Assembly: GCA_027001995.1 (NCBI GenBank)
Contig: JALTLO010000023.1
Span: 19,156-83,155, forward strand
Reading direction: 5' to 3'
DNA: 64,000 bases
From: Planctomycetota bacterium
GTDB lineage: Bacteria; Planctomycetota; GCA-002687715; DRQF01
In this document: positions 6,233 through 22,550 of the stretch, one piece after another
Numbering within the stretch: position 1 is the first letter of the stretch
Layout of the letters: each line of letters begins with the position of its first letter
Program-made: the position numbers and the translations under genes
Notes under the pieces: model-generated
Database searches by the model: none
The model's input: the letters and a program-made list of their open reading frames with translations, nothing else
What the model was told of the DNA's origin: nothing

Positions 6233-7330
6233 ATGAGACGGAGAGTTGGACAGATGGCCACCACCCAAGATATTTCGAACGCAAACATCGCAGCAGCAGG
6301 GGTTTGTGAAGATCAACCGACTGAAAGAATCTTTGACTATGTCTTAGACCACTGTCGGCACGGTGACATCAACGCCTACTTGGAAGACCAAATAGGCCCT
6401 GAATTTGGTGCCTATCGCCATCGCTGGCGACAGGCTCACAATTTGGAGATTGAGACTGACTTTCCCATGCACATCAGCATCGAGAGCCAGCTCAAATGCA
6501 ACTATCGCTGCACTATGTGCACCTATTCCGACCCAGAAGCCATCGCCAAACAACACTATGACGACGTCCTTTCAGAAGAGCTCTATGATCAAATCATTGA
6601 AGAAGCCGGTGAGCATGGCTGCCCATCGATCAATCTCAACGTGCTCAACGAGCCTCTTCTCGACAAAGAAACACCCCGACGGATCAAGAAAGCCAAAGAC
6701 GCCGGCTTCCTCGACATTCGGATGAACACAAACGCCAGTCTCCTCACTGAAACGATGGCAGAAGCTATTATTGATGCAGGCTTGACACGACTCTACGTGG
6801 GCCTCGACGGGGCGACAGCTGAAACCTACGAAAAGGTGCGCATCGGTGGGAATTTCGAGAAAGTCGTCAAGAACGTGGAGCGGTTCTTGGAGATCCGCAA
6901 CGCCAAAGGGCTCACGCTTCCCATCTTACGGGTGTCATTCGTTCGCATGAACATCAACGAGCATGAGATCCCCGCCTTCATGGAATTCTGGCAAGAAAAG
7001 GCGGATATGGTGACGATTCAAGAGTACCAGCCTCCGACTCCAGAAGATGCCTTCATTGGCCAACATGCGGCGTCGAAGCGAGTACCTGACGATTACACCT
7101 GTCCTCAACCATTCGAGCGCGTGACCATCAAGGGGAACGGCAACCTAACCCCCTGCTGCGCTCAATACAGCTACAAATTGACAATTGGTAATGTGAAAGA
7201 GAACGGCATCCACTCCCTTTGGAATTCGCCCAAACTGAAAAACCTAAGGCGCCACATGAAAGAGGGCACTTGGGACCAACTCCCGGTATGCAAAAGCTGC
7301 CTTGAGTCATCTTACTTATTCTCCAAGTAG
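6233..7330 (+). CDS. radical SAM enzyme with C-terminal SPASM/twitch auxiliary Fe-S domain
   Basis: CNYRCTMC (CxxxCxxC) lies about 90 aa in. The C-terminal Cys cluster is CPQPF...TPCCAQYSY...LPVCKSCL. An N-terminal extension of about 85 aa precedes the core; its length is compatible with an RRE domain but this was not verified. Confidence 0.75.
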   Translation: MRRRVGQMATTQDISNANIAAAGVCEDQPTERIFDYVLDHCRHGDINAYLEDQIGPEFGAYRHRWRQAHNLEIETDFPMHISIESQLKCNYRCTMCTYSDPEAIAKQHYDDVLSEELYDQIIEEAGEHGCPSINLNVLNEPLLDKETPRRIKKAKDAGFLDIRMNTNASLLTETMAEAIIDAGLTRLYVGLDGATAETYEKVRIGGNFEKVVKNVERFLEIRNAKGLTLPILRVSFVRMNINEHEIPAFMEFWQEKADMVTIQEYQPPTPEDAFIGQHAASKRVPDDYTCPQPFERVTIKGNGNLTPCCAQYSYKLTIGNVKENGIHSLWNSPKLKNLRRHMKEGTWDQLPVCKSCLESSYLFSK

Positions 7331-7348: not shown

Positions 7349-7537
7349 ATGAAAACGACAAAGAACAAGAAACGCCCCTTTCTTGGCATCCATTTCGAAT
7401 GCTGCTCCGTCTATGCCCGGATCTACAAAACGGCGAAAGGCGATGCTTACGCTGGTTATTGCCCCAAGTGCCGACGTCCGATTCGACTTCGCGTCGGCGA
7501 AGGAGGAAGCGGACAACGTTTCTTTCGGGCGCGCTGA
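7349..7537 (+). CDS. small zinc-ribbon protein (FmdB-family-like); alternatively a candidate RiPP precursor
   Basis: 62 aa ORF beginning 18 nt after the rSAM stop codon. CC...CPKC with ...CPKCRRPIRLRVGEGG resembles the FmdB-family C-terminal CPKCGxxVxRLxGxG. Strongly basic. Confidence 0.4.
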   Translation: MKTTKNKKRPFLGIHFECCSVYARIYKTAKGDAYAGYCPKCRRPIRLRVGEGGSGQRFFRAR

Positions 7538-7870: not shown

Positions 7871-8545
7871 ATGATTGGGCGCAAGGACCCGCTTCGATTA
7901 GGAACCACAAGCATGACAGCGAAAAACTTTCTGACTGACGGGAAAATAAGGGGTGATCGATCCCTTTGGCTCCTGGGTGCGGCGGCCCTGGCGGTCTGTG
8001 CCTTTCTGGCGGCCGGGCTCATTGTCGACAAAGACGAAACCCGGGCCCCAGAGTTAGCAACAGCCCAACCTGTTGACGGTCAGGTTTCGTTGAAAGAAGG
8101 TGCCACCGAAGACGCTGACCCCAAGGTAGCCAAACAAGGGGGATGGCGAAGCAAGCGAACGGCAAAGATGCCAAAGGGCCCGGGTGTTGGCTCCATCTGG
8201 AAAACCATGGGTGGCCTCGTTGTGGTGCTGGTGTTGGTTTTCGCCCTGGCTATCTTTTGTTCAAGGCTTCTCAAAAAGGTCCGCATGCGGCCTCAAGGGG
8301 ACAAGGTCTTAGAACTCATTGATGTCATTCCTTTAGGCCCCAAGAAACAAGTCTTCGTCCTAAGTGCCTATGGCCGCAAACTCATTGTTGGCGCGACCGC
8401 CGATTCCATGAACGTCTTGTCTGAATTTGCTGCGGACGAAATCGAAGCAGGTGAAGCCATCGTCCCAGAGTCCTTCTCAGAGAAGCTCACTAAGAACATG
8501 GCCCGACATACTCGCCCCCTTTCAACCATGGAATTGGAGGCATGA
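7871..8545 (+). CDS. fliO: flagellar biosynthesis protein FliO
   Basis: Sits immediately upstream of fliP with a 4-nt overlap. Has a single TM and a C-terminal LELIDVIPLGPKKQVFVLSAYGRKLIVGATADSMNVLSEF that resembles the FliO conserved C-terminus. The true start may be at 7913. Confidence 0.5.
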   Translation: MIGRKDPLRLGTTSMTAKNFLTDGKIRGDRSLWLLGAAALAVCAFLAAGLIVDKDETRAPELATAQPVDGQVSLKEGATEDADPKVAKQGGWRSKRTAKMPKGPGVGSIWKTMGGLVVVLVLVFALAIFCSRLLKKVRMRPQGDKVLELIDVIPLGPKKQVFVLSAYGRKLIVGATADSMNVLSEFAADEIEAGEAIVPESFSEKLTKNMARHTRPLSTMELEA

Positions 8546-9339
8546 TGCTTAAACAACACCTGCTCCTGGCTCTCTTTGCTTGTTTCTTCATCGGCGGCTT
8601 TCCCACTTTAGCCGAAGCGCAGATAACCGATGACCCAGCAGAAATCGCAAGCCCAGAAGATGAAGCGGCCAGTGCTGAGAGTTCTTCTCCTCTAGATGAT
8701 TTCGAAATGGGTACATCGATGAAAATCGTTCTTGTGCTCACGGCGTTGGCGGCGTTGCCAAGCATCTTAATGACCGTCACGGCATTCACGCGCATCATCA
8801 TCGTCTTGTCCTTCGTGAGAAAAGCGCTTTCAATTCAAGACATGCCACCCAATCAAATCGTCATCGGCATGGCTTTGTTTCTGTCGATTGCTGTCATGCA
8901 ACCGGTCTTCGAAGAGATCTACACTAAGTCCGTGTCACCCTACATGGACAACGAAATCGAATTGGGGGATGCGGCGACAAAGGCCCACGATGTCATGCAC
9001 GGATTTCTCATTCGCCATGCGAAGGAAGATGAAATTCAACTATTCTTAGATGTCACCAAGGCCGAAGTGCCTGAGACAATCCAGGATGTGCCTATCACTG
9101 TCTTAATTCCAGCCTTCACCCTGAGTGAGCTGAAGGTTGCTTTCAAGATGGGATTTCTTGTCTACATCCCCTTCCTCATTGTAGACATGGTGGTAGCCAG
9201 TCTCCTCTTAGCGATGGGCATGATGATGCTGCCCCCGGTTATCATCTCAACACCCTTCAAAATTCTCCTTTTCATTATGGTCGATGGCTGGTCTTTGGTC
9301 ATCGGATCCCTCATGGAAAGCTTCCAGGTTGTGGCATAG
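8542..9339 (+). CDS. fliP: flagellar type III export apparatus protein FliP
   Basis: Signal peptide followed by TAFTRIIIVLSFVRKALSIQ and other FliP core motifs. 265 aa. Confidence 0.9.
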   Translation: MMLKQHLLLALFACFFIGGFPTLAEAQITDDPAEIASPEDEAASAESSSPLDDFEMGTSMKIVLVLTALAALPSILMTVTAFTRIIIVLSFVRKALSIQDMPPNQIVIGMALFLSIAVMQPVFEEIYTKSVSPYMDNEIELGDAATKAHDVMHGFLIRHAKEDEIQLFLDVTKAEVPETIQDVPITVLIPAFTLSELKVAFKMGFLVYIPFLIVDMVVASLLLAMGMMMLPPVIISTPFKILLFIMVDGWSLVIGSLMESFQVVA

Positions 9340-9354
9340 AGAGGTCGCATTGTC

Positions 9355-9624
9355 ATGGATGAAAGTTACGTCGTTCTTATTGCCAGAGAAGCCTTTATCA
9401 CCGCGATCTCCGTCGCTGGGCCTGCCATGTTGGTGGGTATGGGTATCGGTATTCTCATGGCGATTTTTCAGGCCATCACCAGTGTTCAAGAACAAACATT
9501 GACGATGATTCCGAAGATCATCGCTGTAGGGCTCACCATTGTTTTCATGATGCCCTACATTCTCAGAACCTTGGGCACATTCACAACCGACGTCTTTCGG
9601 GCGATGGTTGATGCAGCTCTGTGA
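9355..9624 (+). CDS. fliQ: flagellar export apparatus protein FliQ
   Basis: 89 aa, two TM helices, typical FliQ sequence (..AISVAGPAMLVGMGIGILMAIFQAITSVQEQTL..). Confidence 0.85.
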   Translation: MDESYVVLIAREAFITAISVAGPAMLVGMGIGILMAIFQAITSVQEQTLTMIPKIIAVGLTIVFMMPYILRTLGTFTTDVFRAMVDAAL

Positions 9625-9635
9625 AAGGATGAATC

Positions 9636-10403
9636 TTGGAGTTCTTTGAAGAGAATGTGAGATTCATTGTTCTGCACTGGGTTCGTTGCCTTGCGCTCAT
9701 AGGACCACTGCCGATTTTCGGTCAAGGTGGTACGTCCAGAATGTCGCGGGTTGGGTTGGGGGTTGCTCTTGGAACGGTTCTGGCCTTCCTTTCAGACATC
9801 GATTCTTTTGTCGACCCCGGCCCAACCCTGTTTTTGGTGGTCATCGTCATGAAGGAGGCCATGCTCGGTCTCGTCCTCGGTTACATCGTGTTGATTTCGT
9901 TTTCGACGTTGCGCGTTTGTGGCCACATCATTGGCGAAGGCATGGGATTCAATATGGCAAGTATTCAAGATCCGATCACGGGGGTGAGCTCTCAGTTGAT
10001 CGCTCACCTTTTTGAGTCTGTAGGCATGATGCTGTTCTTCATCACCAAGGGTCATCATGTCCTCATCAAGGCCTTAGCTGCTTCCTTCGCCATCTACCCC
10101 GTCGGCCACTTTGAACTCGATAGGGAGTTAGTGGGAGCCGTCGTGTTGTTCTCATCTGGTTTATTCGCTTCCGCCTTGCAAGTAGCGGCGCCAGTCTTTG
10201 TCGCTCTTTTCGCCATCGCGGTGGCCTTAGCCATTGTTGCTCGCGTGGCACCTCAACTGCAGGTTATGCAATTTGCCTTTCCCGCAAAGATCTTGACTGG
10301 ATTGGTGTTGCTTGTGTCAACGTTTCATGTTTTCGCCCCCTCGATGCAAATGGTATTCGACGATTTGGAGGTCTTCTTGTTCGAGATGTTCGAACAACGG
10401 TAA
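9636..10403 (+). CDS. fliR: flagellar export apparatus protein FliR
   Basis: 255 aa polytopic membrane protein in the canonical position between fliQ and flhB. Confidence 0.8.
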   Translation: MEFFEENVRFIVLHWVRCLALIGPLPIFGQGGTSRMSRVGLGVALGTVLAFLSDIDSFVDPGPTLFLVVIVMKEAMLGLVLGYIVLISFSTLRVCGHIIGEGMGFNMASIQDPITGVSSQLIAHLFESVGMMLFFITKGHHVLIKALAASFAIYPVGHFELDRELVGAVVLFSSGLFASALQVAAPVFVALFAIAVALAIVARVAPQLQVMQFAFPAKILTGLVLLVSTFHVFAPSMQMVFDDLEVFLFEMFEQR

Positions 10404-10412
10404 TGCTGATTC

Positions 10413-11489
10413 ATGGCTGATAGTGCACAAGAAAAAACCGAACAGGCAACCCCGAAGAAGTCCAATGATGCGGCTAAGAAGGGGCAGATTGCCTACTCCA
10501 AGGAGATCACAGGTGCAGTGCTCTTCCTCTTCGGTATTGTCACCATTCGTGGCATTGGCGACACCATTTTCGCCGCTCTTTCGGGTCGTTTGGTTACGAA
10601 TTTCCAATTGCCATTAAATGCCTTTTCAGAGCAAGACCCAAACGACTATCTCGCATCCATGGCAACGGAGGTCTTGTCAATTGTCGGGCCTGTCTTTGCC
10701 GTTGCATTCGCCATCACCTGGGTTCCTGGTCTACTGCAAACGAAACTTCAGTTAAGTGCCAGTAAGCTCAAACCCGAAATCGGGAAACTTAACCCAATCA
10801 AAGGCGTGAAGAAGCTCTTTTCACTCAACAGCGTCGTCAGCACGATTCAGAACCTAGTCAAGATGTCCCTAGTAGGCATCGTGGTGTGGGTGACCATCGC
10901 TGGGGCAATGCCCAAGATCCTTCGGCTCTCCGGCGCTCCTTTGGGAGAGGTGGTTGATGTTATTCTCGATCTCATGTTCTTAATGGGATTCCGCGTTGCA
11001 GGAGGCCTAGTTGCCGTTGGCATCATCGATACTTTCTATCGCATTTGGAAGCACAAGAAAGACCTCATGATGTCGAAAGAAGATGTCAAAGAAGAGCGCA
11101 AGAGTTCAGAAGGCGACCCCAAGATCAAGGCGAAGATCAAGTCAATTCAACTGGGATTGGCATTGCAACGAATGCAACAGGATGTGCAAACCGCTGATGT
11201 TGTTGTTCGGAATCCGACCCACTTCGCCGTAGCTTTGAAGTACGACCGAGAGGCAGGGACATCACCTCAAGTGGTGGCCAAGGGACGTGGCCACATGGCT
11301 CTCCGGATCATTGCCATCGCAGAAGAAGCCGGAGTTGAAGTGGTGGAGAACCGGCCCTTAGCCAGGGAACTTTACCGCAGCGTCGAACTCGGCGAGCAGA
11401 TTCCAGAGAGGCTGTTCAAAGCAGTCGCTGCGGTTCTCGCCTTCGTCTTCAAGAAGAAACAAAAACGAACACATACGCAGGTCGTCTAG
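10413..11489 (+). CDS. flhB: flagellar export apparatus switch protein FlhB
   Basis: 358 aa with 4 N-terminal TM helices and the autocleavage-site motif NPTHFAVAL in the C-terminal domain. Confidence 0.85.
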   Translation: MADSAQEKTEQATPKKSNDAAKKGQIAYSKEITGAVLFLFGIVTIRGIGDTIFAALSGRLVTNFQLPLNAFSEQDPNDYLASMATEVLSIVGPVFAVAFAITWVPGLLQTKLQLSASKLKPEIGKLNPIKGVKKLFSLNSVVSTIQNLVKMSLVGIVVWVTIAGAMPKILRLSGAPLGEVVDVILDLMFLMGFRVAGGLVAVGIIDTFYRIWKHKKDLMMSKEDVKEERKSSEGDPKIKAKIKSIQLGLALQRMQQDVQTADVVVRNPTHFAVALKYDREAGTSPQVVAKGRGHMALRIIAIAEEAGVEVVENRPLARELYRSVELGEQIPERLFKAVAAVLAFVFKKKQKRTHTQVV

Positions 11490-11518
11490 ACCCTGCAATC
11501 ACCGATGGATATTGACAC

Positions 11519-13615
11519 ATGGCAGACTTAAATAAGAAGAAGGACGGGCTGAAGAGCGAAGTGGCATTGGGTCTTGGCGTAATGGCCATGATCTTTGTCT
11601 TGATCGTACCTCTACCTCCCATCGTTCTGGACGTGTTCATCGCCATGAACATTGCCTTCGCCACCCTTCTTTTGTTGATCACTCTGAGTGCTCAAGAATC
11701 TCTTGAGCTTTCCAGCTACCCGACTCTTCTGTTGCTGACGACTCTATTCCGATTGTCATTGAACGTCGCGTCGACTCGACTGATTCTTCTGAAGGGGCAA
11801 GCGGGAAATGTGATTCAAGCGTTCGGGGACTTCGTTGTTGGGGGCAACCTTGTCGTCGGCGTGGTGATTTTCTCGATTCTGGTGATCATCCAGTTTGTTG
11901 TCATCACCAAAGGTTCCAACCGAATTGGCGAGGTTGCTGCGCGTTTCACCTTGGATGCCATGCCAGGTAAACAAATGGCGATTGATGCCGATATGAATTC
12001 TGGACTGATTGACGAAGCAGAAGCACGGGTTCGTCGGGAGAAGATTTCGGAGGAGGCTGAATTCTATGGTGCCATGGATGGTGCCGGTAAGTTTGTTCGA
12101 GGAGACGCAGTAGCTGGCCTCATCATTACTTTCATCAACGTGCTCGGTGGCGTCATCATTGGTTATGCCGACAATATGCCCATTGTAGACGCCCTAAAGA
12201 AGTATAGCATCCTAACAATTGGTGACGGTTTGGTGAGTCAAACACCTGCCCTTATCATCGCCATTGCCGCCGGTATCTTGGTAACGAAAACATCAAGCAA
12301 AAGGCAGATGGCCGATGAATTCGGTATCCAGCTTTTCAGCAACGACCGTGCATTGGGCATCTGCGCCTTTGTTCTATTCATCATGGCCTTGGTGCCTGGA
12401 TTTCCGAAGCTTCCATTCTTTGCCATCTCTGTTGGCATGCTGATGGCGCGCAGGCGTATCATCAAGAGACGCGAAGAGGAGGCAGCGGAGCCAAGTGAAG
12501 CAGATTTGGCCTCGGAAGCTGATGAAGATGGGCCAGAATTAACCGCTGAAACCTTAGGTCGCCTTCTCCATGTCGATCGCATGGGGATTGAGATCGGTTA
12601 TCGATTGATCCAAATTGTCGATGCTGACAAAAAGGGTGGTTTGCTCGATCACATCGGCATGGTGCGCAAGCAGTTCGCCAAAGAGCTGGGCATTATCATT
12701 CCGCCAATTCGGCTGCGGGACAACTTATCCATGGATGCCAATGGTTATCGCATTCTCTTGAACGGCCAAGAAGTTGCCCAAGGGATGCTCTATCCCAATC
12801 ACCACCTAGCCATGAACCCAGGGACGGTCACTGAAGAAATTGACGGCGTTCGTGGTCTCGACCCAACTTTTGGAATGCCGGCAGTCTGGGTTCGTGACGA
12901 ACAAAAAACCGAAGCGGAGATGCTGGGCTACACGGTGGTTGACGCCATCAGTGTGATGGTCACCCATTTGACGGAGACGATTCGCGCCAATGCCTCAGAA
13001 GTATTGACCCGAGAAGATGTTCAGTCTTTAGTGGACCGCATTAAAGAAGATGCCCCGACTGTCGTTGGTGAGTTGGTGCCTGACGTTCTTGGGCTCGGAG
13101 AGATTCAAGGCGTACTACAAAACCTTCTCGGTGAACGTGTGCCGATTCGCAATTTGCCAGTGATTCTTGAGGTCCTAGCGGATCACGGGAAAAAAATTAA
13201 GGATGTCGAGCAACTGACGGAGTTTGTCCGTCAACGTTTGGGGCGAGTGCTCTGCGAAATGCACGGTGACAAGGAAGGCACAATTGCTTGCATCGTCGTC
13301 GACCCGCATCTGGAGGGGGCCATCGAGCAAGAGCTTGTTGGTCAAACCACCGGCGCCATGTCAGCTGGGTCTCTCCAGAAGATTCAGGAGAGCGCCTCCG
13401 AATGCTATGGCGCAGCGATGCAAGAAGGCAAAGAGGCCGTCATTCTCACCCGCGCCACCACCAGGCGCTACATTGCCGATATGCTGACCGGCCTCAAACC
13501 CCGCATTCCCGTGCTTTCCTTCAACGAGATCACGGCGGCCAAACGAGTCGAGCCAGTTGGTCAAATTTCAATAACACCCAGTGAGGAGAAAACACCTCTT
13601 GAGTTGAGTGCATGA
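11519..13615 (+). CDS. flhA: flagellar export apparatus protein FlhA
   Basis: 698 aa with an N-terminal 8-TM domain containing the FHIPEP-type motifs (GDGLVSQTPALIIAIAAGILVTK) and a large cytoplasmic C-terminal domain. Confidence 0.9.
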   Translation: MADLNKKKDGLKSEVALGLGVMAMIFVLIVPLPPIVLDVFIAMNIAFATLLLLITLSAQESLELSSYPTLLLLTTLFRLSLNVASTRLILLKGQAGNVIQAFGDFVVGGNLVVGVVIFSILVIIQFVVITKGSNRIGEVAARFTLDAMPGKQMAIDADMNSGLIDEAEARVRREKISEEAEFYGAMDGAGKFVRGDAVAGLIITFINVLGGVIIGYADNMPIVDALKKYSILTIGDGLVSQTPALIIAIAAGILVTKTSSKRQMADEFGIQLFSNDRALGICAFVLFIMALVPGFPKLPFFAISVGMLMARRRIIKRREEEAAEPSEADLASEADEDGPELTAETLGRLLHVDRMGIEIGYRLIQIVDADKKGGLLDHIGMVRKQFAKELGIIIPPIRLRDNLSMDANGYRILLNGQEVAQGMLYPNHHLAMNPGTVTEEIDGVRGLDPTFGMPAVWVRDEQKTEAEMLGYTVVDAISVMVTHLTETIRANASEVLTREDVQSLVDRIKEDAPTVVGELVPDVLGLGEIQGVLQNLLGERVPIRNLPVILEVLADHGKKIKDVEQLTEFVRQRLGRVLCEMHGDKEGTIACIVVDPHLEGAIEQELVGQTTGAMSAGSLQKIQESASECYGAAMQEGKEAVILTRATTRRYIADMLTGLKPRIPVLSFNEITAAKRVEPVGQISITPSEEKTPLELSA

Positions 13616-13630
13616 AAATGCCGATAGATT

Positions 13631-14017
13631 ATGCAGAGAGAACCCCTTTTGCACAGGGAAACGAGAGTGAGTGAACAGTTAGAACAACCCGAAGCCGATC
13701 AAATCGACAGTGAAACAGCCCAGGAAGAAGTGGTTGAGGAGACAAAAGAGACCTCTCCACCCAAGATTTCTGGAGCCCACGCTATTGGCAAACTTGCCGG
13801 GGCAAGCGTCGCTATTCCCACCGCGGCCATTGTTTTTTGCGTGGCTGCTATGGCTGGTGTCCCGGCATCCACAGCAATCACCCGCAGTGTATTCACCGCC
13901 ATCGGAATGTGGATCTTCGTCGGCCTCGCCTTTCGCTTCCTTTTCACCTTTGTCATTTACGACTGGCGCAAGAAGATGTCGCCCTCCCCGGCTGCCAATG
14001 AAGGAGCCAGCGAATGA
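13631..14017 (+). CDS. hypothetical small membrane protein with an acidic N-terminus and two C-terminal TM helices, in the flagellar operon
   Basis: 128 aa. Start is 16 nt after the flhA stop. Its stop overlaps the fliA start (ATGA). No recognisable family. Confidence 0.4.
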   Translation: MQREPLLHRETRVSEQLEQPEADQIDSETAQEEVVEETKETSPPKISGAHAIGKLAGASVAIPTAAIVFCVAAMAGVPASTAITRSVFTAIGMWIFVGLAFRFLFTFVIYDWRKKMSPSPAANEGASE

Positions 14018-14772
14018 GTGATGCCGTGCAAGCCTATTCTCGTCGTGCCCTCTCAGATGAAGACCGCAATACACTGGTGGAAGACTACCTACCCTTGGTA
14101 CGTCACGTCTTAGGGCGGTTGCCTTTGACCTTGCCTGCATTCATGGACCAAGAGGACCTCTTCGAAGTGGGCGTTCTTGGTCTTATGAACGCCGTCAGAA
14201 CCTATGACAGTTCCAAGGGTGCGAAACTCAAGACTCATGCCTATGTGAACATCCGTGGGGCGATCTTGGATGAGCTTCGAAAATACGACATCGTCCCTCG
14301 ATCACGCCGCGACCGCATCAAGTTCTTCAAGAAGACCGAAGAAGAATTAGAAGATCAATTGGGTCGCCCAGCCACACCGGAAGAAATCGCTGCATCCATG
14401 GGTCTCAAGGTCGAGCAAGTCGACGAAATCTTAGTCAACATGCAAGGGGCATCGCTTTTGTCCTTAGATGAAGGAGTTGGAGGAGAAGACGGCGTGCGTT
14501 TATCGGACGCCATTGCCTGCCCCGGCTCGCCCAATCCTTCCGACGCGGCGGAATCGGCGGAGCTGAAAGGCAAGATCGCCGACCTCATCCACCAACTACC
14601 GGAGAACGAAAGGCGCGTGATTGTTCTCTATTACGCCGAAGGCCTACTACTCAAGGAAATCGGCGCCGTGCTCGACGTTTCCGAAAGTCGAGTCAGTCAA
14701 ATACACAGCCGGGCGATTTATCGCATGAACAAAGCCCTAACTGCCCGTCCCAAGGCGGAGAGTTCCTTATGA
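14014..14772 (+). CDS. fliA: RNA polymerase sigma factor FliA (sigma-28)
   Basis: Region 2 YLPLVRHVLGRL.../LGLMNAVRTYD and region 4 VIVLYYAEGLLLKEIGAVLDVSESRVSQIHSRAI closely parallel enteric FliA. Confidence 0.85.
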   Translation: MSDAVQAYSRRALSDEDRNTLVEDYLPLVRHVLGRLPLTLPAFMDQEDLFEVGVLGLMNAVRTYDSSKGAKLKTHAYVNIRGAILDELRKYDIVPRSRRDRIKFFKKTEEELEDQLGRPATPEEIAASMGLKVEQVDEILVNMQGASLLSLDEGVGGEDGVRLSDAIACPGSPNPSDAAESAELKGKIADLIHQLPENERRVIVLYYAEGLLLKEIGAVLDVSESRVSQIHSRAIYRMNKALTARPKAESSL

Positions 14773-15005
14773 ATCGTCGCATTTCCAACATTATCAAAGC
14801 CGCCAACTTGAGCCCGACCTTGGGAGCATCCGTCAGCAGTGCCGCTGGCGTTCCCCCAGCCAAGACAGCCCATGCGCCCCAGGACACAGCCACGATCAAC
14901 TTGCATCGCAACGGCGACCTCATTGAAGCCATTGAGGTCACTTGCAGCTGCGGGCGCACCACCTTCATTGAATGTGTTTACGAAGACCAGGAGCCCACAT
15001 CATGA
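14769..15005 (+). CDS. hypothetical 78-aa Cys-containing protein translationally coupled to fliA
   Basis: Its ATG overlaps the fliA TGA (ATGA). Contains C-x-C-x7-C (EVTCSCGRTTFIEC). No family recognised. Confidence 0.4.
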   Translation: MNRRISNIIKAANLSPTLGASVSSAAGVPPAKTAHAPQDTATINLHRNGDLIEAIEVTCSCGRTTFIECVYEDQEPTS

Positions 15006-15487
15006 ACCGTCCAAGTTCATCATTGAGAGTACTGATCGCCACCTTGAGCGTCTTCTTTTTGGGGGCCTGCCAAACGGTCCACAAAGATTTGGAGGCAGAG
15101 ATGATCGGAAACAGCAAGCCGAGACGAGAAACCAGCAAGCCTGTGGATTCCGCCATACAAGTTCCTGATCTGGACGAGAGGAAGGAAGACACCCAGTTTC
15201 TCAGCCAAATCGACCGTCTGGAGAAGAGAGTTTTTGACCTAACCCAGAAGCTCAAGGAAGCCGAAGCGGAACGGAAATCCGCCATAGAATTGCGCAATGC
15301 GGCTCAGCAAAATGAATCTGTCTTGGCCAATCAGATCGACGACTTTCAGACATCTCTCGAGAGCGCTCTTGATCGGGAGAGGAAACTAAAAGAACGCCTT
15401 CTCCGATCAGAGTTGGAATCTGTTCGTTACCAACAGACCATCGCCGACATGAAAATCCGCGAACTGACGAGAGGAGACAGCAATTGA
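15002..15487 (+). CDS. hypothetical coiled-coil lipoprotein
   Basis: ATGA overlap with the preceding ORF. Signal peptide plus lipobox FFLGAC. The remainder is predicted coiled coil (heptad-rich, E/K/R/L). Confidence 0.45.
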   Translation: MNRPSSSLRVLIATLSVFFLGACQTVHKDLEAEMIGNSKPRRETSKPVDSAIQVPDLDERKEDTQFLSQIDRLEKRVFDLTQKLKEAEAERKSAIELRNAAQQNESVLANQIDDFQTSLESALDRERKLKERLLRSELESVRYQQTIADMKIRELTRGDSN

Positions 15488-16161
15488 AAGTCTTAGCTCT
15501 TGTTATTCTGCTTTCCTTGTCATTGACTGCTTGTGCATTCTTGGAAAGAGGAACGCCACCTCCAGAGCCTGGAGCCTTTCCGTTCTATGCGGAAAAAGAC
15601 GCTTCGAAAGGTATTCGCCGGGTGGTCATGATGCCACTGCGAGTCGAAAACCCAGGCCATGCATCCATGGGGAATTTGGAACGCAGCCTGCAGAGAGCCA
15701 TGTCTAAAGAACACTTGTTTGAGCTTGTTCCCGTCTCCAATAGTGATCTCGCCGACACAGATTTCGATTCAACAAGGACAAAGGGGACCTTCAGAACAGA
15801 AGACTTAATTACTCTGAGCCAGCGATTCGGTGCCGAAGGTGTTATTCATGGCATCGTGACCCAATACCAAGTCTATCCTCAGGTTGTTTTAGGGCTCCGG
15901 CTCACCCTATTGGATTGCCGAACCGGGCGAGTCCCTTGGGCCACTGACATTGTTCTCGATGCTTCTTCGCGCATCATCAAACAAGACGTGCAAAACTATT
16001 ATGACACGACAAAATGGGAAGAAGGCTCCCTCCTTGACCATGAGAAAGTACTGATTTCTCCTCGATTGTTCGGAGACTACGCCTCCATGCGCATCGCGAG
16101 CACTTTAGCCAGCGCCATGCGTGCCGGCCCTGCATCAATATCAAGGTCCGTAAAGAACTAA
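15484..16161 (+). CDS. hypothetical lipoprotein, possibly a flagellum-associated outer-membrane lipoprotein (FlgP/LpoB/CsgG-like size and layout)
   Basis: TTG start overlapping the preceding stop (TTGA). Signal peptide plus lipobox SLTAC. 225 aa. Family assignment is not secure. Confidence 0.4.
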   Translation: MKVLALVILLSLSLTACAFLERGTPPPEPGAFPFYAEKDASKGIRRVVMMPLRVENPGHASMGNLERSLQRAMSKEHLFELVPVSNSDLADTDFDSTRTKGTFRTEDLITLSQRFGAEGVIHGIVTQYQVYPQVVLGLRLTLLDCRTGRVPWATDIVLDASSRIIKQDVQNYYDTTKWEEGSLLDHEKVLISPRLFGDYASMRIASTLASAMRAGPASISRSVKN

Positions 16162-16310: not shown

Positions 16311-17975
16311 TTGAATAAACCTCCCAGGTCAACGATTCGAATGCAAGAGGATGGAGCATCAGCCTCAATTCCAGGCAGGCTCGCGAGGATAAAGAGTATG
16401 TTCGGACACGGATTCGCGGTTTTTACCGATAGCCTTCTTAAAGGCGCAGTAGCAGTTCCTGAAGATGCCGGGTGGTTCAAACCCCTGGTTTTAGGTCTCT
16501 ATGCCGCCACATTGTTTCTTTTGTGGCTCTTTGGTGTCCACCGCTACTTCATCATGTGGTTCTACTCTTCCAACAAGAAGAACGTACCCACCCCAAAACG
16601 AGTCTTTGCGGACGAAGAATTGCCCCCAGTCACTGTTCAGCTTGCCATCTTTAATGAGATGTACGTGGCCGAGCGCATCATCGATGCGGTCTGCAAGATG
16701 GACTACCCTAAGCACTTACTGCAAGTCCAAGTCTTAGACGACTCCACCGATGAGACCGTAAACATCAGTCGCAGGACCGCAGCTCTCTGGGCAGAAAAAG
16801 GCTTCGATATTGAGGTCATCCACCGCATCGACCGCAGTGGCTATAAGGCTGGTGCATTGGAAAACGGACTCAAGACGGCGAAGGGTGAGATTATCTGCAT
16901 GTTTGACGCAGACTTCATTCCCACCGTTGACTTTCTGAGAAAACAGGTCCACTTCTATTCCGATCCCAATGTGGGCTTTGTCCAAGCTCGCTGGGCCCAC
17001 ATCAACGAAAATCACTCTTTGTTGACCAAGCTGCAAGCCTTGTACCTAAACGGCCACTTCGTCTTGGAGCACACGGGACGTCAACGTTCTGGCCGCTTCT
17101 TTAGCTTCTCGGGCACTGCCGGCACTTGGCGCCGCGCATGTATCGAGAACGCTGGGGGCTGGTCTCATCGCACATTGGTCGAAGACTTAGATCTCTCATA
17201 TCGGGCCCAATTAGGGGGATGGCAAGGTGTCTACCTGGTAGACCAAGGAGTACCCGCTGAGCTTCCTGTTGACATGAACGGCTACAAGAGCCAGCAACAT
17301 CGTTGGGCTAAAGGCTTCATTCAGGCCATGATGCACATGCTGATTCCTATCTGGAAGAGCAAGCAACCTCTCAAGGTGAAGATCGAGTGCACCTTCCATT
17401 TGACCAACAACTTGACCTATTTATTCATGATCGCTCTGAGCGTCTTGATGTTCCCGGCTCTTCACTACCGCTGTCAAATTCTCTCTGGCATCTGGGCCAC
17501 CATCTTTGACGTCAGCCTCTTCGTCGGCGCCACTGCCAGCATCCTGAGCTTCTATGCCTATGCGGAACGGCAGATCGACGAGAAGTGGTACAAGAAAGTC
17601 ATCTACATGCCCCTTCTCATGGGACTGGGCATCGGCATGGCATTGAATCAGGCAAAAGCCGTTATCGAAGCCCTCCGGGGTCAGGAAAGCCCTTTTGTTC
17701 GCACCCCGAAGTATCAGGTCAATGCCGGAGAAAAAGGGGCTGCTTGGAAGAAGAAACGCTACTCCGCCTCAAAGAGCATGCTGCCAGCCCTGGAGCTTGC
17801 TTTCGCCCTTTACTTCACTGGCGTGACGGCATACGCGGCGGTCCACAACCTGTGGCTGGCTGTTCCTTTCTTGGGACTCTTTGCCTGGGGTTATGGTTAC
17901 GTCGGATGGAAATCCATCGAATTGCAAAAGCGAACAGCCCCCAAAGCGTCCCCAACACCAGCAATCGCTGACTAA
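16311..17975 (+). CDS. family 2 glycosyltransferase, processive cellulose-synthase-like (CESA/NodC/HAS type), membrane-embedded
   Basis: Has the D, DxD (FDADF) and Q(Q/R)xRW (QQHRWAKG) signature plus DDSTDET. TM helices flank the catalytic domain. There is no C-terminal PilZ domain. The true start is probably an internal Met (16341 or later). Confidence 0.75.
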   Translation: MNKPPRSTIRMQEDGASASIPGRLARIKSMFGHGFAVFTDSLLKGAVAVPEDAGWFKPLVLGLYAATLFLLWLFGVHRYFIMWFYSSNKKNVPTPKRVFADEELPPVTVQLAIFNEMYVAERIIDAVCKMDYPKHLLQVQVLDDSTDETVNISRRTAALWAEKGFDIEVIHRIDRSGYKAGALENGLKTAKGEIICMFDADFIPTVDFLRKQVHFYSDPNVGFVQARWAHINENHSLLTKLQALYLNGHFVLEHTGRQRSGRFFSFSGTAGTWRRACIENAGGWSHRTLVEDLDLSYRAQLGGWQGVYLVDQGVPAELPVDMNGYKSQQHRWAKGFIQAMMHMLIPIWKSKQPLKVKIECTFHLTNNLTYLFMIALSVLMFPALHYRCQILSGIWATIFDVSLFVGATASILSFYAYAERQIDEKWYKKVIYMPLLMGLGIGMALNQAKAVIEALRGQESPFVRTPKYQVNAGEKGAAWKKKRYSASKSMLPALELAFALYFTGVTAYAAVHNLWLAVPFLGLFAWGYGYVGWKSIELQKRTAPKASPTPAIAD

Positions 17976-17999
17976 GACGAAGCCACCCAAAATCGAAAA

Positions 18000-18040
18000 G
18001 GGCCCCGACCACCTCACCGTGGTTGGGGCCCTATTCATTT
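18000..18040 (+). terminator. rho-independent terminator after the GT2 gene
   Basis: 13-bp GC-rich stem gggccccgaccac/gtggttggggccc with a 6-nt loop, followed by tattcatttc. Confidence 0.5.
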
Positions 18041-18220: not shown

Positions 18221-20284
18221 ATGGCAGTGCCTATAGGAAGAGGCACTGAGAGGCGCAATCAAAATCTCAAGACGAACGGGGCTTACCCACCTGGTGTTCC
18301 CACCATGAACCTTTCCGCACTCTTGTCTTTGAGGGAAAAGGGCATCGACTTGAACAAGGTAGTTAGATTCGACATCACTTTACTTCTTTGCCTTTTGATA
18401 GGGGCCATGATTTTCTTCATGCCACTATTGGGTGGTGGCTTTGTTGCTGACGACTTCACGATTTTGCGCTTTGTCACTTATGGCGACCCAGCCCATGCAG
18501 ATACTGATCCGAAAGATTCAACTGCCGTATTGCGCTATTTCTTCGAGCCGACGAACCAGGAAACCCATGTCTATCGGCCGTTAGTGCTCCTATCCTTTCG
18601 TTTGAGCTACCAGCAATTCGGAACCAGCTCTTCTGGGTTCTTGATGACCAACCTACTGATTCATTTACTCAACGCCGTGATTGTGGCTCGTTTGCTACGA
18701 TTCCTCCCTCCAAACTCTCGAGCCATTTGGTTAGCGGCTATTGCCGTGTTCTTGTTTCATCCTTTGCAGGTGCAAGTTGTAACTTGGTCTGCAGCACGAT
18801 CAGACAGCCTCTCATTCTTCTTCGGATCACTGGCTCTTTTGCTCAAATTCTCACATCCCAAGCGCGCCCTTCTCCCGGCACTCCTCATACTTCTCGCTTT
18901 ACTTTGCAAGGAGTCCGCCATCGTTTGGGCAGCGGCGCTGATTTTTTTCGAAATTCCCACGAGAACCGGCGACAAGACAGATCGCTCTTGGGACATCGGT
19001 GCCAGGGGCAGGCGCCTCCTGCCACTCGCATCTGTTGTCAGCATCTATTTCATTTTGCGCTCGCAAGCGTTGAACTCCCTTGATACCCCGGCACTCTACA
19101 ATGGACTAGAACTGTCCGAACATCTGTCGCAAAAATCACTCAAGGGCATAGGGAAGTCCCTACTCTTTATTTTCTGCCCTGTCGTACACGAGGTCATCCC
19201 CAACAGCGCTGTCAATGCCCTTATTCACTTGACTCAACTCATCGCAAACATCACTCTCTTCCTAATCGGCGGTCGCGAACTCATGAGACGCGGGCTACGG
19301 GAAGCCCTCCTTTGGAGTGTACTACTCTTTTCAGCACTCCTCTCCTTGATAGTCGGAAACCCGTGCCCAGACTTCTTGCTTTCTCGGGCCTTCTATACCT
19401 CTATGCTTCTTGTCGCATGCCTCATAACTTTGGCCTACGGGGCCAAACCCCGAACAACGATGTTCCTGTCGCTGGCTTTGATCGCCACGTTCTTGCCAAG
19501 TTCCATCGTAATCAGGGACTGTTGGGTCAGAAATGGTGCCGAGGTGAAGGGCTATCAAGAGTCTTTGGATAACATCTTGGACGACTTGCCAACAACAAAT
19601 GTCAACAGGATCGTTGTACTCAATCCCATTGGGCCAGTTTCTTCAAGAGGCGGATTCGTGTTGGGCCAACCGCCTCCTACGGCATTCATGAGGCCATTTA
19701 TGAAGATGGACCTTTCATTCGTTTCTCTTGGACGGCAAGGCTCAGACAAAACGTACCCAGCAAGAGAGTTCGCCGCTGCATTTCCTCGCTCCGGTGAGAA
19801 ATCTATCGTGGTTCGCCTACGCTTAGACAGAGAGAAAAATGCGAATTTCTTCGAACTCGTACACGCCGATACCATCGTTGGCAAAGAACAATGGAAGGTT
19901 GAGCCGGTCGAACCCGGCTGGAATCAAGTGACTGTGATTAACATAGACCACGCAGAATTAGAAACTTTTGAATTCACAGTTCGGCACCAAGAAGAAGAGG
20001 GGCTTCGTTTCGTCGTCGCAATTCTCGATGGGTCTGGTCTCCTTTTCGAACTACCAGGGATCGTTGGAGAGATTCGCGTCGACGGTGACACTCAAACAAC
20101 ATCTTTGCAGGTGCCACCGATTCCTAAGAAGTACTTTGAGGGCATTCCCCCAGCCATTTCTCTTGGGTGGAGTGTAGAAGTTTCAAGGAAAGACGGAACA
20201 ATCATCGGAAGGAGCCCCACAAGTCCGATTCAAGTGAGGTTCGTGACTGAGGAATCCAAGGCAAAAGCAAATTCTGCCAAATGA
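18221..20284 (+). CDS. GT-C-like polytopic membrane protein of the TMTC/DUF1736 type (PMT_2-related) with a non-TPR C-terminal soluble domain
   Basis: N-terminal about 400 aa has more than 10 TM segments with the DUF1736-like motif LFHPLQVQVVTWSAARSDSL (compare HP..vE.V.W...R.D.L) and an early YRPL segment. A C-terminal domain of about 270 aa has no TPR repeats. Confidence 0.5.
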   Translation: MAVPIGRGTERRNQNLKTNGAYPPGVPTMNLSALLSLREKGIDLNKVVRFDITLLLCLLIGAMIFFMPLLGGGFVADDFTILRFVTYGDPAHADTDPKDSTAVLRYFFEPTNQETHVYRPLVLLSFRLSYQQFGTSSSGFLMTNLLIHLLNAVIVARLLRFLPPNSRAIWLAAIAVFLFHPLQVQVVTWSAARSDSLSFFFGSLALLLKFSHPKRALLPALLILLALLCKESAIVWAAALIFFEIPTRTGDKTDRSWDIGARGRRLLPLASVVSIYFILRSQALNSLDTPALYNGLELSEHLSQKSLKGIGKSLLFIFCPVVHEVIPNSAVNALIHLTQLIANITLFLIGGRELMRRGLREALLWSVLLFSALLSLIVGNPCPDFLLSRAFYTSMLLVACLITLAYGAKPRTTMFLSLALIATFLPSSIVIRDCWVRNGAEVKGYQESLDNILDDLPTTNVNRIVVLNPIGPVSSRGGFVLGQPPPTAFMRPFMKMDLSFVSLGRQGSDKTYPAREFAAAFPRSGEKSIVVRLRLDREKNANFFELVHADTIVGKEQWKVEPVEPGWNQVTVINIDHAELETFEFTVRHQEEEGLRFVVAILDGSGLLFELPGIVGEIRVDGDTQTTSLQVPPIPKKYFEGIPPAISLGWSVEVSRKDGTIIGRSPTSPIQVRFVTEESKAKANSAK

Positions 20285-20532: not shown

Positions 20533-20841
20533 TTAGCCGAGGAGTCCGCCTCCTTCTGTTAGGAAGCCTTCAGCCGCTTTCGTTGCACTCTCATGACTAT
20601 CCAACTGCCCACTTTCGAGCAGTTCTTTACCTCTTTGGATGGCTTTTGTGTCAACCTCAGGGGATTTGATGATCGTTTCGATATGTGCACGTACCCGTCC
20701 AAGTTGACTGGAATTCTCAAAGAGATCCTGCTTTCCAGCTGACTTGTTCGCCTTAGCTGAGGCACTTCCGCGACGGGAAGGATCCGAGCGCTCTTGTTGG
20801 GCTGCTCGGCTGATTTCCGCGCTGACATCTTTGATGTCCAT
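20533..20841 (-). CDS. flgM: anti-sigma-28 factor FlgM
   Basis: 102 aa. C-terminal LGRVRAHIETIIKSPEVDTKAIQRGKELLES parallels FlgM [30 protein letters not shown]. The disordered S/A/K-rich N-terminus is typical. Confidence 0.6.
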   Translation of the reverse strand: MDIKDVSAEISRAAQQERSDPSRRGSASAKANKSAGKQDLFENSSQLGRVRAHIETIIKSPEVDTKAIQRGKELLESGQLDSHESATKAAEGFLTEGGGLLG

Positions 20842-21168
20842 TGGAAGCTCCTTAAAAACCTGGACTTACGTCCGATACCTGGGTTTCCGACAAACCCTTC
20901 CATTCCATTTCCTTTGTTCTCTTAGGCAGAATCTGAAAGTCCTTAACCAAGAAAAGGAAAAAAACATGGGGCAATATAGGCAGAGGAAAGTGATTTTACT
21001 GTGCAGATGAGGCCATTCCGGTTTCAATAGGGCCTATCACCCAGCCTGAGTCGTGAACAAAGGGTCCGATGGCAAGAACATGATGTGTTCTTTGGCAAAG
21101 CCCCCAAATTGAACGACCAGCCCATTGCCAGTCAAGATGAACTCGAATTGCAGCAGGATGGAGAAGTT

Positions 21169-22179
21169 ATGTCTCGTATTTCGCTCATGGCCATGATCCT
21201 CATTGCCAGCATTGCATTGCTCGCCGCCCCCGCATCGGCCCAGCTCTTAAATCCCAGTTTCGACGCGAACGCTATTGGTACCCCTCAAGACTATGTCTTC
21301 AATGCCAATGGCGGTGGGTCCTTCATCTCATCGTTTGATCTTTCCATGCCCACCAACGGGACCCGCTTTGCGGTCATGACCGGTGGTAACAATGGCCCAG
21401 CAACTCCCCACTCGAATCCAGGCGGGGTTGGCACGGATGCCAGTGGCGCCGTCACCTTAAGTCAGACATTTTTCTTCGCTAGCCCGACGGACACCAACAT
21501 TGAGTTCGATTGCATCCTCTTGGGCAACGACATGGGTAATGCTGATTTCCTTGAGGTGAGCATCTCTGCCGGAGGCCAATCTTTGAATCTGGTTCACCTG
21601 GACACCATTGCTGATGTTGGACCTGGAGGTGCAAGCACCGTAACCGGCCTCATGACGTCCCCACTCACACATGTGTCTGTTGATGTGGGCGCTGCCTTCG
21701 TCGGAGCCAACATTGCCACGCCATTCACATTGACCATCCATTTGGGCAATTCCGGAGACAATTTGATTGCCCCACGAGGTCACATCGACAACTTCACCTT
21801 CTCCCCCGGAACTCCATTCGCCACCAACTCAGTGGGCTTTATCCCCATGGGTGGCTTCGTTCGCTTGAGCATTCGGACGGCTTTGCCATTCACGGAATAC
21901 TACACCTTGGTCAGCCATGACACCGCAGGGCCTAAGGGTATGGGGGCCTTTGGTGGTCTCTACTTGGACAATCAAACTATCGGCATTCTCACCTTGCCAG
22001 TGGGAACTCCCGGCCTCCACGACATCACCAATGCAGCCGGAGAGTTTGATGCCAATGTTTTCCTTGGCATTGCTCCAATTGGTTTTGTCTTTGACTACAT
22101 GCTGGCAGCTTTCTTGCCGGGAGGGATCGAAATTACCCCTGTGAAGCGAGGTGCTTGGGGTCAACAAGAAGACTTCTAA
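21169..22179 (+). CDS. hypothetical secreted protein
   Basis: Signal peptide MSRISLMAMILIASIALLAAPASAQ followed by a Gly/Thr/Asn-rich beta-type sequence. No family recognised. The listed ORF start at 21085 is probably upstream of the real start. Confidence 0.45.
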   Translation: MSRISLMAMILIASIALLAAPASAQLLNPSFDANAIGTPQDYVFNANGGGSFISSFDLSMPTNGTRFAVMTGGNNGPATPHSNPGGVGTDASGAVTLSQTFFFASPTDTNIEFDCILLGNDMGNADFLEVSISAGGQSLNLVHLDTIADVGPGGASTVTGLMTSPLTHVSVDVGAAFVGANIATPFTLTIHLGNSGDNLIAPRGHIDNFTFSPGTPFATNSVGFIPMGGFVRLSIRTALPFTEYYTLVSHDTAGPKGMGAFGGLYLDNQTIGILTLPVGTPGLHDITNAAGEFDANVFLGIAPIGFVFDYMLAAFLPGGIEITPVKRGAWGQQEDF

Positions 22180-22332
22180 GCCGATAGGATTCAGACTTGA
22201 AGCCCTCAGAATGGACCCGATGCTGGGCTCTGGACGGTCATCATCCATGACCTAAGGTTGTTCGTCTCAGGTGCATAACGTGCACAACCTCAAGAATGAG
22301 GCAGGCTAAGAGCCGATAGATGACGCAAGAAA

Positions 22333-22361: not shown

Positions 22362-22464
22362 CGTAGATCATCAACAGGGCGGGCCAACGCGCCCAAGACA
22401 GATTCTTTGGCAATGGGCTGGAGCATGAAGAAGGGAGACTGATCAAAGATCAGTCTCCCTTAAG

Positions 22465-22550
22465 TGCCGCGAGCGAGATTCGAACTCGCACTCAGTTTAA
22501 CCTGAACTAGGCCCTCAACCTAGCGCGTCTGCCAGTTCCGCCACCGCGGC
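22465..22550 (-). tRNA. tRNA-Leu (anticodon GAG), type II with long variable arm, CCA not encoded
   Basis: The reverse complement reads GCCGCGG-TG-GCGGAACTGGCAGACGC-G-CTAGG-TTGAGGG-CCTAG-(long variable arm)-GCGAG-TTCGAAT-CTCGC-TCGCGGC-A. It has a 7-bp acceptor stem, a GTTCGAATC T-arm, and an anticodon loop TTGAGGG giving GAG. A palindrome at 22433..22459 immediately downstream on the minus strand could terminate it. Confidence 0.8.

Follow-up and report, generated by a model that had tools for sequence, protein, structure and literature searches.

Which proteins are encoded together with the flagellar sigma factor FliA in Planctomycetota, and do they belong to the flagellum? We addressed this question in a 64,000-nucleotide stretch of a Planctomycetota genome (assembly GCA_027001995.1, contig JALTLO010000023.1, positions 19,156–83,155; hereafter the window). 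Five co-oriented genes, in the order gene 1, fliA, orfB, lipoC and lipoD, follow the fliOPQR-flhBA genes here on the + strand (Table 1), and the flagellar export-gate operon that precedes them extends from fliO to flhA (7871..13615, +). The five genes are a conserved flagellar module, tied to flagellar loci. Gene 1 is the one part known in kind; orfB, lipoC and lipoD are candidate accessory components whose functions are deduced from context. With moderate confidence, we regard the whole as a sigma-28 gene module within a flagellar superoperon of planctomycetes, with dual expression, an FlgV-like gene 1 and a basal-body accessory made of lipoD and lipoC.

A conserved five-gene module around fliA

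The product of 14014-14772 is a bona fide FliA/WhiG sigma-28, scoring 234.7 bits against TIGR02479 (FliA_WhiG; cut-off 189.6), with Sigma70 regions r2, r3 and r4 all above the Pfam cut-off. Its context also fits FliA, as the gene follows flhA and predicted sigma-28-type boxes precede both a flgM candidate and its own operon.

All five genes, along with most of the overlaps, recur in ten Planctomycetota lineages including the window; the comparison started from close lipoD homologues and extended to FlhA relatives and more distant lipoD relatives. There are only 10 close homologues of lipoD, all in Planctomycetota metagenome-assembled genomes, and their contigs keep the five-gene order. The fliOPQR-flhBA genes are followed by the complete module in the window and in six further loci, which we denote by number (L005, L007, L011, L015, L018 and L020). 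In L019, FlhG is inserted after flhA (flhA-flhG-gene1-fliA) and one extra acidic open reading frame (ORF) follows fliA; counting this locus, the module comes directly after flhA in 8/10 lineages. The L019 module continues into fliK, flgD, flgE, flgF, flgG and flgA, and in L020 fliM/fliN lie upstream of the module and two flagellin genes downstream. The module is detached in the remaining 2/10 lineages, where it stands by itself; the gene preceding it is a divergently oriented beta-lactamase gene in L001 and a beta-helix protein gene in L003. Since fliM, fliN and fliOPQR-flhBA are found ~62 kb from the module on the same 4-Mb contig of L001, this lineage is flagellated and its module has simply been relocated as a block.

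Gene order, orientation and most of the overlaps are thus kept across Planctomycetota whose FlhA proteins are only 55–56% identical. FliA is 61–86% identical across the orthologous loci, and gene 1, orfB, lipoC and lipoD remain intact ORFs with invariant residues down to 19–26% identity in the most distant orthologues. A sequence-only reading of this stretch had suggested that the partners of fliA are new flagellar accessory or regulatory components, and the comparison of fliA neighbourhoods bears out their association, the partners being kept beside the sigma-28 gene in ten lineages. They are conserved and linked to flagella, and we met neither a lack of conservation, nor non-flagellated hosts, nor homology to housekeeping families.

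Junctions and the start of gene 1

The 4-nucleotide start/stop overlaps reported previously were confirmed exactly by reading the sequence directly. The TGA of gene 1 (14015-14017) overlaps the ATG of fliA at 14014, the TGA of fliA overlaps the ATG of orfB at 14769, and the TGA of orfB overlaps the ATG of lipoC at 15002 (ATGA in each case), while the TGA of lipoC overlaps the TTG of lipoD at 15484 (TTGA). An AGGAG-type Shine–Dalgarno sequence lies 7–9 nucleotides 5′ of each of these four starts. The longest ORF of lipoC begins at 14972, but the start at 15002 yields a signal peptide and the lipobox LGAC; in the same way, the lipoD start at 15484 yields a signal peptide ending in the lipobox LTAC. 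Across four orthologous loci, neighbouring genes overlap by 4 or 8 nucleotides at 14/16 internal junctions, and the overlaps therefore go beyond chance in the sense of being conserved. They make translational coupling plausible; a fixed stoichiometry is not proven by them, and the ‘stoichiometric co-production’ proposed from the sequence was an assumption that goes further than possible coupling.

The junction between flhA and gene 1 differs from what had been described. The gap, previously given as 16 nucleotides and taken as part of the coupled chain, counts 15 nucleotides from the flhA stop (13615) to ATG 13631. A GTG at 13667 aligns with the MSE... N-termini of the gene 1 orthologues and gives a product of 116 residues beginning MSEQ...; AGGGA lies 7 nucleotides 5′ of this GTG, ATG 13631 has no Shine–Dalgarno sequence, and in L005 an in-frame TAG bars an N-terminal extension. 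On these grounds, GTG 13667 is probably the start of gene 1, which would leave a gap of 51 nucleotides after flhA. Because this gap holds a promoter-like box, gene 1 is probably translationally uncoupled from flhA, in place of the coupling assumed earlier at this junction.

Promoter-like boxes and a probable FlgM

The box in question, GCATGAAAATGCCGATA(A/G), is kept ahead of gene 1 in L005, L007 and the window itself (13610-13627); L015 has it with a 1-nucleotide deletion, and L018 retains CCGATAA. L001 and L003, whose modules are not preceded by flhA, have the box too. These last two boxes matter because there is no flhA 3′ end that could explain their conservation. In all of these loci except L018, it stands 24–46 nucleotides 5′ of gene 1. 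A search of the window that allowed up to 3 mismatches found the window copy, GCATGAAAATGCCGATAG, and no other, where 0.11 matches would be expected by chance. The canonical −10 element of sigma-28 promoters is GCCGATAA. As the box precedes the module even without flhA, it suggests a putative internal FliA-dependent promoter, by which fliA would be autoregulated, together with the later start of gene 1; transcription beginning a few bases 3′ of 13627 would exclude ATG 13631 as a start.

A minus-strand ORF of 102 residues at 20533-20841, 4.4 kb downstream of the module, is a probable FlgM, the anti-sigma-28 factor. TIGR03824 (FlgM_jcvi) is the sole family match in 6/6 orthologues of this ORF (best E 3e-4), with 21.1 bits for the window protein against a cut-off of 40.75; Pfam FlgM is reached at E 0.06–0.1 in 2/4 orthologues, and a search against the PDB gave no FlgM match. 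A putative sigma-28-type promoter, TTAA-N15-GCCTAAGA, lies at 20920-20946 (−), and a GCC(G/T)A(T/A/G)A(A/G) −10 box occupies the same place in 6/6 loci. Fifteen nucleotides 5′ of this −10 box is a −35-like tetramer, T(C/A/T)A(A/T) in 5/6 loci and AAAA in L001, and the 5′ leader is strongly conserved (gaagggtttgtcggaaaccc...ggacgtaagtcc...aaggagcttcc). The locus therefore appears to hold a FliA/FlgM regulator pair, each behind a predicted sigma-28-type promoter.

We propose that the module would be transcribed both by read-through from the export-gate operon and from its own FliA-dependent promoter in the gap between flhA and gene 1. The latter would give positive feedback on fliA, which would in turn be checked by the nearby FlgM with its classic sigma-28 promoter. 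The promoter logic itself is textbook. In Bacillus subtilis, sigD stands near the end of the fla/che operon, distal to the export-gate genes, and is expressed by read-through as well as from an internal promoter; behind it comes swrB, a small accessory gene that flagellar assembly requires. The planctomycete arrangement is similar in that the sigma-28 gene lies distal to the export-gate genes with a small gene next to it. It differs in the identity of what follows, as SwrB, which spans the membrane once, has no relation to orfB, lipoC or lipoD.

Gene 1 and the FlgV family

The sequence-only reading had treated gene 1 (its orf128) as new and uncharacterized. Gene 1 has no Pfam or NCBIfam match, singly or across the aligned orthologues, neither library having an FlgV model, and its profile found only artefacts among PDB sequences, which include no FlgV, namely de novo repeat proteins matching its Ala/Gly-rich transmembrane region. 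Hydropathy peaks twice, around residues 68 and 99, and the loop joining the two hydrophobic segments is four residues long (PAST). Residues G57, G76 and R85 are invariant in 9/9 orthologues. R85 belongs to a T-R-S motif, with the residue after it being S in six, A in two and G in one; it is located where the second transmembrane segment begins and not mid-helix, and a second arginine, R102, is found in 7/9. The gene stands directly upstream of fliA in all 10 lineages, after FlhG in L019.

These properties recall FlgV, a two-transmembrane protein with a conserved arginine (‘RS’) in its second transmembrane segment described by Zamba-Campero et al. in 2024 (PMC11607428), which has been reported as a basal-body ring and to have homologues in the PVC (Planctomycetes–Verrucomicrobia–Chlamydiae) clade (PMC11607428). 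Within the family, described between 2014 and 2024 (PMC11607428), Borrelia burgdorferi BB0268 is Type-1, with transmembrane segments at 13–35 and 40–57 (PMC11607428), and the FlgV proteins of C. jejuni and H. pylori are Type-2 (PMC11607428, PMC10655999). Like FlgV, gene 1 encodes a small inner-membrane protein with a tight two-transmembrane hairpin and a conserved arginine at or in the second segment, in the ‘RS’ setting of Type-1, and it sits between the flhA/flhF/flhG sub-module and the sigma-28 sub-module. Unlike FlgV, its variable polar region is N-terminal, being long only in some orthologues, and its C-terminal tail is short (15–25 residues) and not conserved; the acidic residue of Type-1 proteins is found only in L018. 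The surroundings also differ, since FlgV loci of other phyla carry FapA, YjfB or a protein with transmembrane and helix-turn-helix parts, whereas here orfB, lipoC and lipoD follow the sigma-28 gene. Overall, it is quite likely that gene 1 belongs to the FlgV family, as a new member of a described group; whether or not it does, it is no new kind of protein. As an FlgV protein it would act as an inner-membrane ring at the MS/C-ring junction that modulates filament assembly.

LipoD belongs to a large family with flagellar contexts

A family profile was built from ten close homologues of lipoD. With a limit of E ≤ 1e-3 it retrieved 991 representative clusters, and 571 remained when the limit was tightened to E ≤ 1e-10; the best 150 members are mostly 200–260 residues long and nearly all aligned end to end. 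LipoD itself barely passes the gathering cut-off of Pfam LpoB (PF13036; 22.9 bits against 22.3) and stays far below that of NCBIfam TIGR02722 (LpoB; 29.8 against 110.55), and the window protein has no FlgO, LPP20 or FlgT family match in Pfam at E ≤ 1. Among 70 family members scanned, 11 match LpoB and a handful each match CsgG, GNA1162, LptE and FlgO, the last weakly and in 2/70 only. Of the families named in advance as candidates for the downstream proteins, FlgP, FlgO, FlgT, CsgG and FliZ thus went unmatched as families, and LpoB was reached only at threshold. We also considered FlgH, the L-ring lipoprotein of similar size, and rejected it, as there is no FlgH match at E ≤ 1 and the lipoD model is alpha/beta and not FlgH-like.

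The AlphaFold2 model of lipoD has an alpha/beta core and two family-specific C-terminal helices. Foldseek ranks its neighbours as PelC, GNA1162, Chlamydia CT253, FlgT, LpoB, CsgG, TolB-N and HpaA, with E 3.7e-7 and a template modelling score of 0.60 (normalized to the target) for PelC and E 2.8e-6 for FlgT. In agreement with this order, the family profile finds PelC (5T10/5T11) at E 2.2e-6 and LpoB at 1.2e-3 among PDB sequences. Profile and predicted fold thus place lipoD within the TolB-N/LpoB/PelC superfamily, with PelC as its nearest relative, but in no named family.

Comparison with the known proteins shows both shared and distinct features. PelC (5T10, 5T11, 9H80) is an outer-membrane lipoprotein with the same alpha/beta core, and its 12-mer ring under a porin offers a plausible structural analogy for a ring around the rod or LP-ring; lipoD is ~60 residues longer and has a flagellar context in every locus examined. 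LpoB is also a lipoprotein, but the long disordered linker that marks LpoB is not evident in lipoD, nor is any context related to penicillin-binding proteins. The Vibrio H-ring proteins FlgO, FlgP and FlgT and the Campylobacter basal-disk lipoprotein FlgP are accessory proteins of the periplasm or outer membrane, FlgP being a lipoprotein, and like lipoD they are encoded in flagellar loci. LipoD differs from FlgO/FlgP/FlgT in lying in the fliA operon and not beside flgA-flgM/flgT, in an extra helical C-terminal region of ~60 residues, and in matching FlgT by fold only.

The contexts of the lipoD family were flagellar in all 11 cases examined, consisting of the ten sigma-28 modules and one distant clade of 26% identity (pairwise E 4e-19). 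Within this clade, fliD of L021 (8244-11773) is followed by lipoD with a 4-nucleotide overlap, a 90-residue ORF, fliS and a 121-residue ORF. L022 keeps this order from fliD to the 121-residue ORF, and the contigs of L023 and L025 start within lipoD and keep the downstream part. A response-regulator/HD-domain gene comes next in L021, L022, L023 and L025, and cheR, cheB and methyl-accepting chemotaxis protein genes are present in L021. The 90-residue ORF of L021 looks FlgM-like by eye and was not accepted as FlgM, having no support from hidden Markov models. The fliD-fliS context breaks the specific link of lipoD to fliA but strengthens its link to the flagellum.

OrfB and lipoC

OrfB has 43 homologues, all of 66–97 residues and all unnamed. 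C59, C61 and G62 are invariant (V-T-C-x-C-G-R), and K10 is at least 90% conserved within an I-I/L-K motif. Its AlphaFold2 model has a disordered N-terminal half and a three-stranded beta-meander, with a predicted local distance difference test (pLDDT) score of 92–94 at residues 41–70. No Pfam or NCBIfam family matched orfB, singly or over the aligned orthologues; the profile found only the CxC knuckle of L31 at E 0.2 among PDB sequences, and Foldseek gave nothing below E 0.3. YjfB, FlbD, FlgM and ZAS (zinc-binding anti-sigma) proteins were each considered and rejected, as no matches were obtained. The protein is presumably cytoplasmic because it has no signal peptide. We propose that orfB would be a small cytoplasmic partner, possibly a factor that binds FliA or the export gate.

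LipoC carries a coiled coil of ~100 residues and a conserved VPDLD-x-R motif; among 9 orthologues, Cys23, P55 and L134 are invariant and the heptad-rich region is conserved. No credible Pfam or NCBIfam family was found for it, singly or over the aligned orthologues. Its profile matches among PDB sequences are generic, to coiled coils and to Lpp (E 0.014–0.024), all with E ≥ 0.001. LipoC shares a lipobox and a coiled coil with Lpp and differs from it in having no conserved C-terminal Lys. It was therefore not taken as Braun's lipoprotein: the C-termini are unconserved, with a terminal Lys in 3/9 orthologues only. OrfB, lipoC and lipoD are undescribed in curated libraries and the searchable literature, and the lipoD family is unnamed.

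In our working model, lipoD together with lipoC would form a periplasmic, membrane-anchored basal-body accessory. LipoD would most likely be an oligomeric ring or disk of PelC-like subunits under the outer membrane, around the rod and LP-ring, analogous to the H-rings of FlgO/FlgP/FlgT, and the coiled-coil lipoC would serve as spacer or tether. For lipoD, a ring is the guess that asks for least, because its closest relative, PelC, is a dodecameric ring and FlgT shares the fold class.

Competing explanations

The similarity to PelC can also be read in another way. LipoC and lipoD could be an envelope or exopolysaccharide-export pair, a PelC-like funnel working with a glycosyltransferase family 2 (GT2) synthase and merely co-regulated with sigma-28, for example at a swarmer-to-sessile switch. 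PelC is the best match of lipoD by both profile and fold, a processive GT2 gene comes after lipoD in the window, L001, L003, L005, L007 and L015, and in the window no terminator was found between lipoD and the GT2 gene, with a strong hairpin terminator after the latter (17999-18032). However, a gap of 149–270 nucleotides with a sigma-70-like site separates the two genes, and the GT2 gene is not beside the module in L018 (which has a PAS kinase), L019 (a HEAT protein, then fliK/flgD/flgE) or L020 (a Ser/Thr kinase). Being absent there and in L021, and thus a feature of the near clade only, it was rejected as a part of the module. None of the pel genes (pelA-G) was found in the window or any locus examined, and the distant lipoD homologue that overlaps fliD and precedes fliS has no glycosyltransferase nearby, so we consider an export function improbable. 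It is also unlikely, if less so, that the downstream proteins regulate sigma-28, with orfB acting as an anti-sigma factor that binds zinc, or as a co-factor, made 1:1 with FliA, and the lipoproteins as an envelope sensor of outer-membrane or hook-basal-body status. In every module the first conserved gene after fliA is orfB, usually coupled to it, and an invariant CxCG with a disordered N-terminal peptide carrying a conserved IIK motif is a layout found among small binding partners. On the other hand, only two of its cysteines are invariant, the third being lost in the L019 clade, and it shows no ZAS or FlgM signal. The probable FlgM, conserved nearby with its own predicted sigma-28 promoter, means that orfB need not be the anti-sigma factor, which weakens the earlier idea that this protein (orf78) is a sigma-28 modulator. 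Furthermore, nothing connects a cytoplasmic protein of 78 residues to periplasmic lipoproteins, and members of the lipoD family are encoded apart from fliA as well, in the fliD-fliS operon. As for the small ORFs being lineage-specific filler and their overlaps an accident of compact operons, 4-nucleotide overlaps are indeed common in bacterial operons, and gene 1, orfB and lipoC match no curated family. Non-functional filler is nevertheless contradicted by the conservation data, which show intact ORFs with invariant residues in an order kept in 10 lineages, and we give this explanation hardly any weight.

The interpretation as a sigma-28 module with dual expression and a basal-body accessory must itself be set against several observations. 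The GCCGATA(A/G) box has a weak −35 element (TGAG/TCAG at N16), so that it may be a regulatory site of another kind. Gene 1 is assigned to FlgV by architecture, arginine and position, not by sequence homology. The ring-forming role of lipoD is drawn by analogy from fold class and context only; that fold class includes the non-ring proteins LpoB, TolB-N and GNA1162, the model is of moderate quality (pLDDT 71), and the distant contexts come from 4 lineages of ~1000 clusters. The literature search found no planctomycete motor structure, and among the best 120 FlhA matches none was recognizable as coming from the L003 genome (GCA_020639295.1). With these points in mind, the earlier notion of new flagellar accessory components survives in part: the conserved flagellar linkage and the ring-lipoprotein fold class of lipoD speak for it, and gene 1, which fits FlgV, drops out of the new ones. 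A bolder form, in which lipoD and lipoC build an unseen PelC-like accessory ring or disk in the motors of Planctomycetota and of at least one further clade, that of the fliD-fliS context, the ~1000-cluster family is a new widespread component, and orfB is a new partner of sigma-28 or the export gate, is a tentative proposal to which we give less than even credence.

Other features of the window

Table 1. Coordinates of the module, the preceding export-gate genes and nearby features in the window.
Feature	Position	Strand	Description or basis
fliO	7871-8545	+	Pfam FliO
fliP	8542-9339	+	tblastn orthology to loci annotated FliP
fliQ	9355-9624	+	tblastn orthology to loci annotated Bac_export_1/2/3 (fliQ/fliR/flhB jointly)
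fliR	9636-10403	+	tblastn orthology to loci annotated Bac_export_1/2/3 (fliQ/fliR/flhB jointly)
flhB	10413-11489	+	tblastn orthology to loci annotated Bac_export_1/2/3 (fliQ/fliR/flhB jointly)
flhA	11519-13615	+	FHIPEP, 834 bits (Pfam); tblastn orthology to FHIPEP loci
Conserved box GCATGAAAATGCCGATAG	13610..13627	+	Sigma-28 −10 core GCCGATA(A/G); overlaps the flhA stop codon
Gene 1 (earlier orf128)	13667..14017	+	FlgV-like two-transmembrane hairpin; alternative start ATG 13631
fliA	14014..14772	+	FliA/WhiG-family sigma-28, 252 residues; TIGR02479
orfB (earlier orf78)	14769..15005	+	78 residues; disordered N-terminus and C-terminal beta-meander with C-x-C-G
lipoC	15002..15487	+	161-residue lipoprotein; lipobox LGAC, Cys23; coiled coil of ~100 residues
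lipoD	15484..16161	+	225-residue lipoprotein; TTG start, lipobox LTAC, Cys17
Processive GT2 glycosyltransferase	16311..17975	+	Pfam Glyco_tranf_2_3; NCBIfam PgaC/CelA-like below cut-off
Probable flgM	20533..20841	−	102 residues; TIGR03824 FlgM_jcvi match below cut-off

Just 5′ of fliO lies a gene for a radical-SAM/SPASM enzyme (6233-7330, +), followed by a 62-residue Cys-rich, zinc-ribbon-like ORF (7349-7537); the two could be a peptide-maturation pair and are apparently unrelated to the flagellar genes. Between the GT2 gene and flgM, at 18221-20284 (+), the window has a 687-residue polytopic membrane protein with a weak AZOBR_p60025 glycopolymer-formation match, which is absent from this place in L001, L003, L005 and L007. 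Beyond flgM, a tRNA-Leu(GAG) at 22464-22550 (−) lies between two convergent genes and is conserved in L001, L003, L005 and L015. Just upstream of it, GCCGATAG sites at 22180 and 22312 (+) were considered as further sigma-28 promoters and rejected, as they are not conserved in L005, L001, L003 or L015; the match TCAA-N15-GCCGATAG at 22161-22187, in the same tRNA-Leu region and equally not conserved, was taken as chance. Beside its tRNA-Leu, L001 has about seven tandem copies of a 27-nucleotide hairpin-forming unit, aaaaaagaccagcttgcgttggtcttc (~14590-14790), which is absent from the window and the other loci.

Further along, a single ORF of 1299 residues (36901-40800, +) fuses MurG (N- and C-terminal domains of glycosyltransferase family 28) to the lipid II flippase MurJ, with HEAT repeats at the C terminus, and a GT4-family (MraY/WecA-like) gene follows at 40797-41900. 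The window also contains gyrA (27306-29852, −) and parB and parA (49219-50881, −). A sugar transferase is encoded at 55055-56296, and another sigma-70-family factor, in which regions 1.2, 2, 3 and 4 are present, at 56360-57136. After 57136, G+C drops from ~0.52 to 0.42–0.48 up to the end of the window (64000), and this stretch may be an acquired glycan or surface island. The cumulative GC skew declines steadily over the entire window with no reversal.

Implications for planctomycete flagella

In non-model flagellar motors, lineage-specific periplasmic rings set torque, sheath formation and assembly, and most of the genes concerned are unidentified. If the lipoproteins are not flagellar, the finding shrinks to an ordinary compact operon. 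The module provides a concrete candidate set across the sampled Planctomycetota, namely a CxCG mini-protein, a coiled-coil lipoprotein and a family of PelC-fold lipoproteins, and connects it with sigma-28 autoregulation and with FlgV, itself described only recently. It raises the questions of what surrounds the planctomycete basal body, whether PelC-like rings can be recruited to flagella, and whether a promoter overlapping the flhA 3′ end places fliA under positive feedback in these bacteria.

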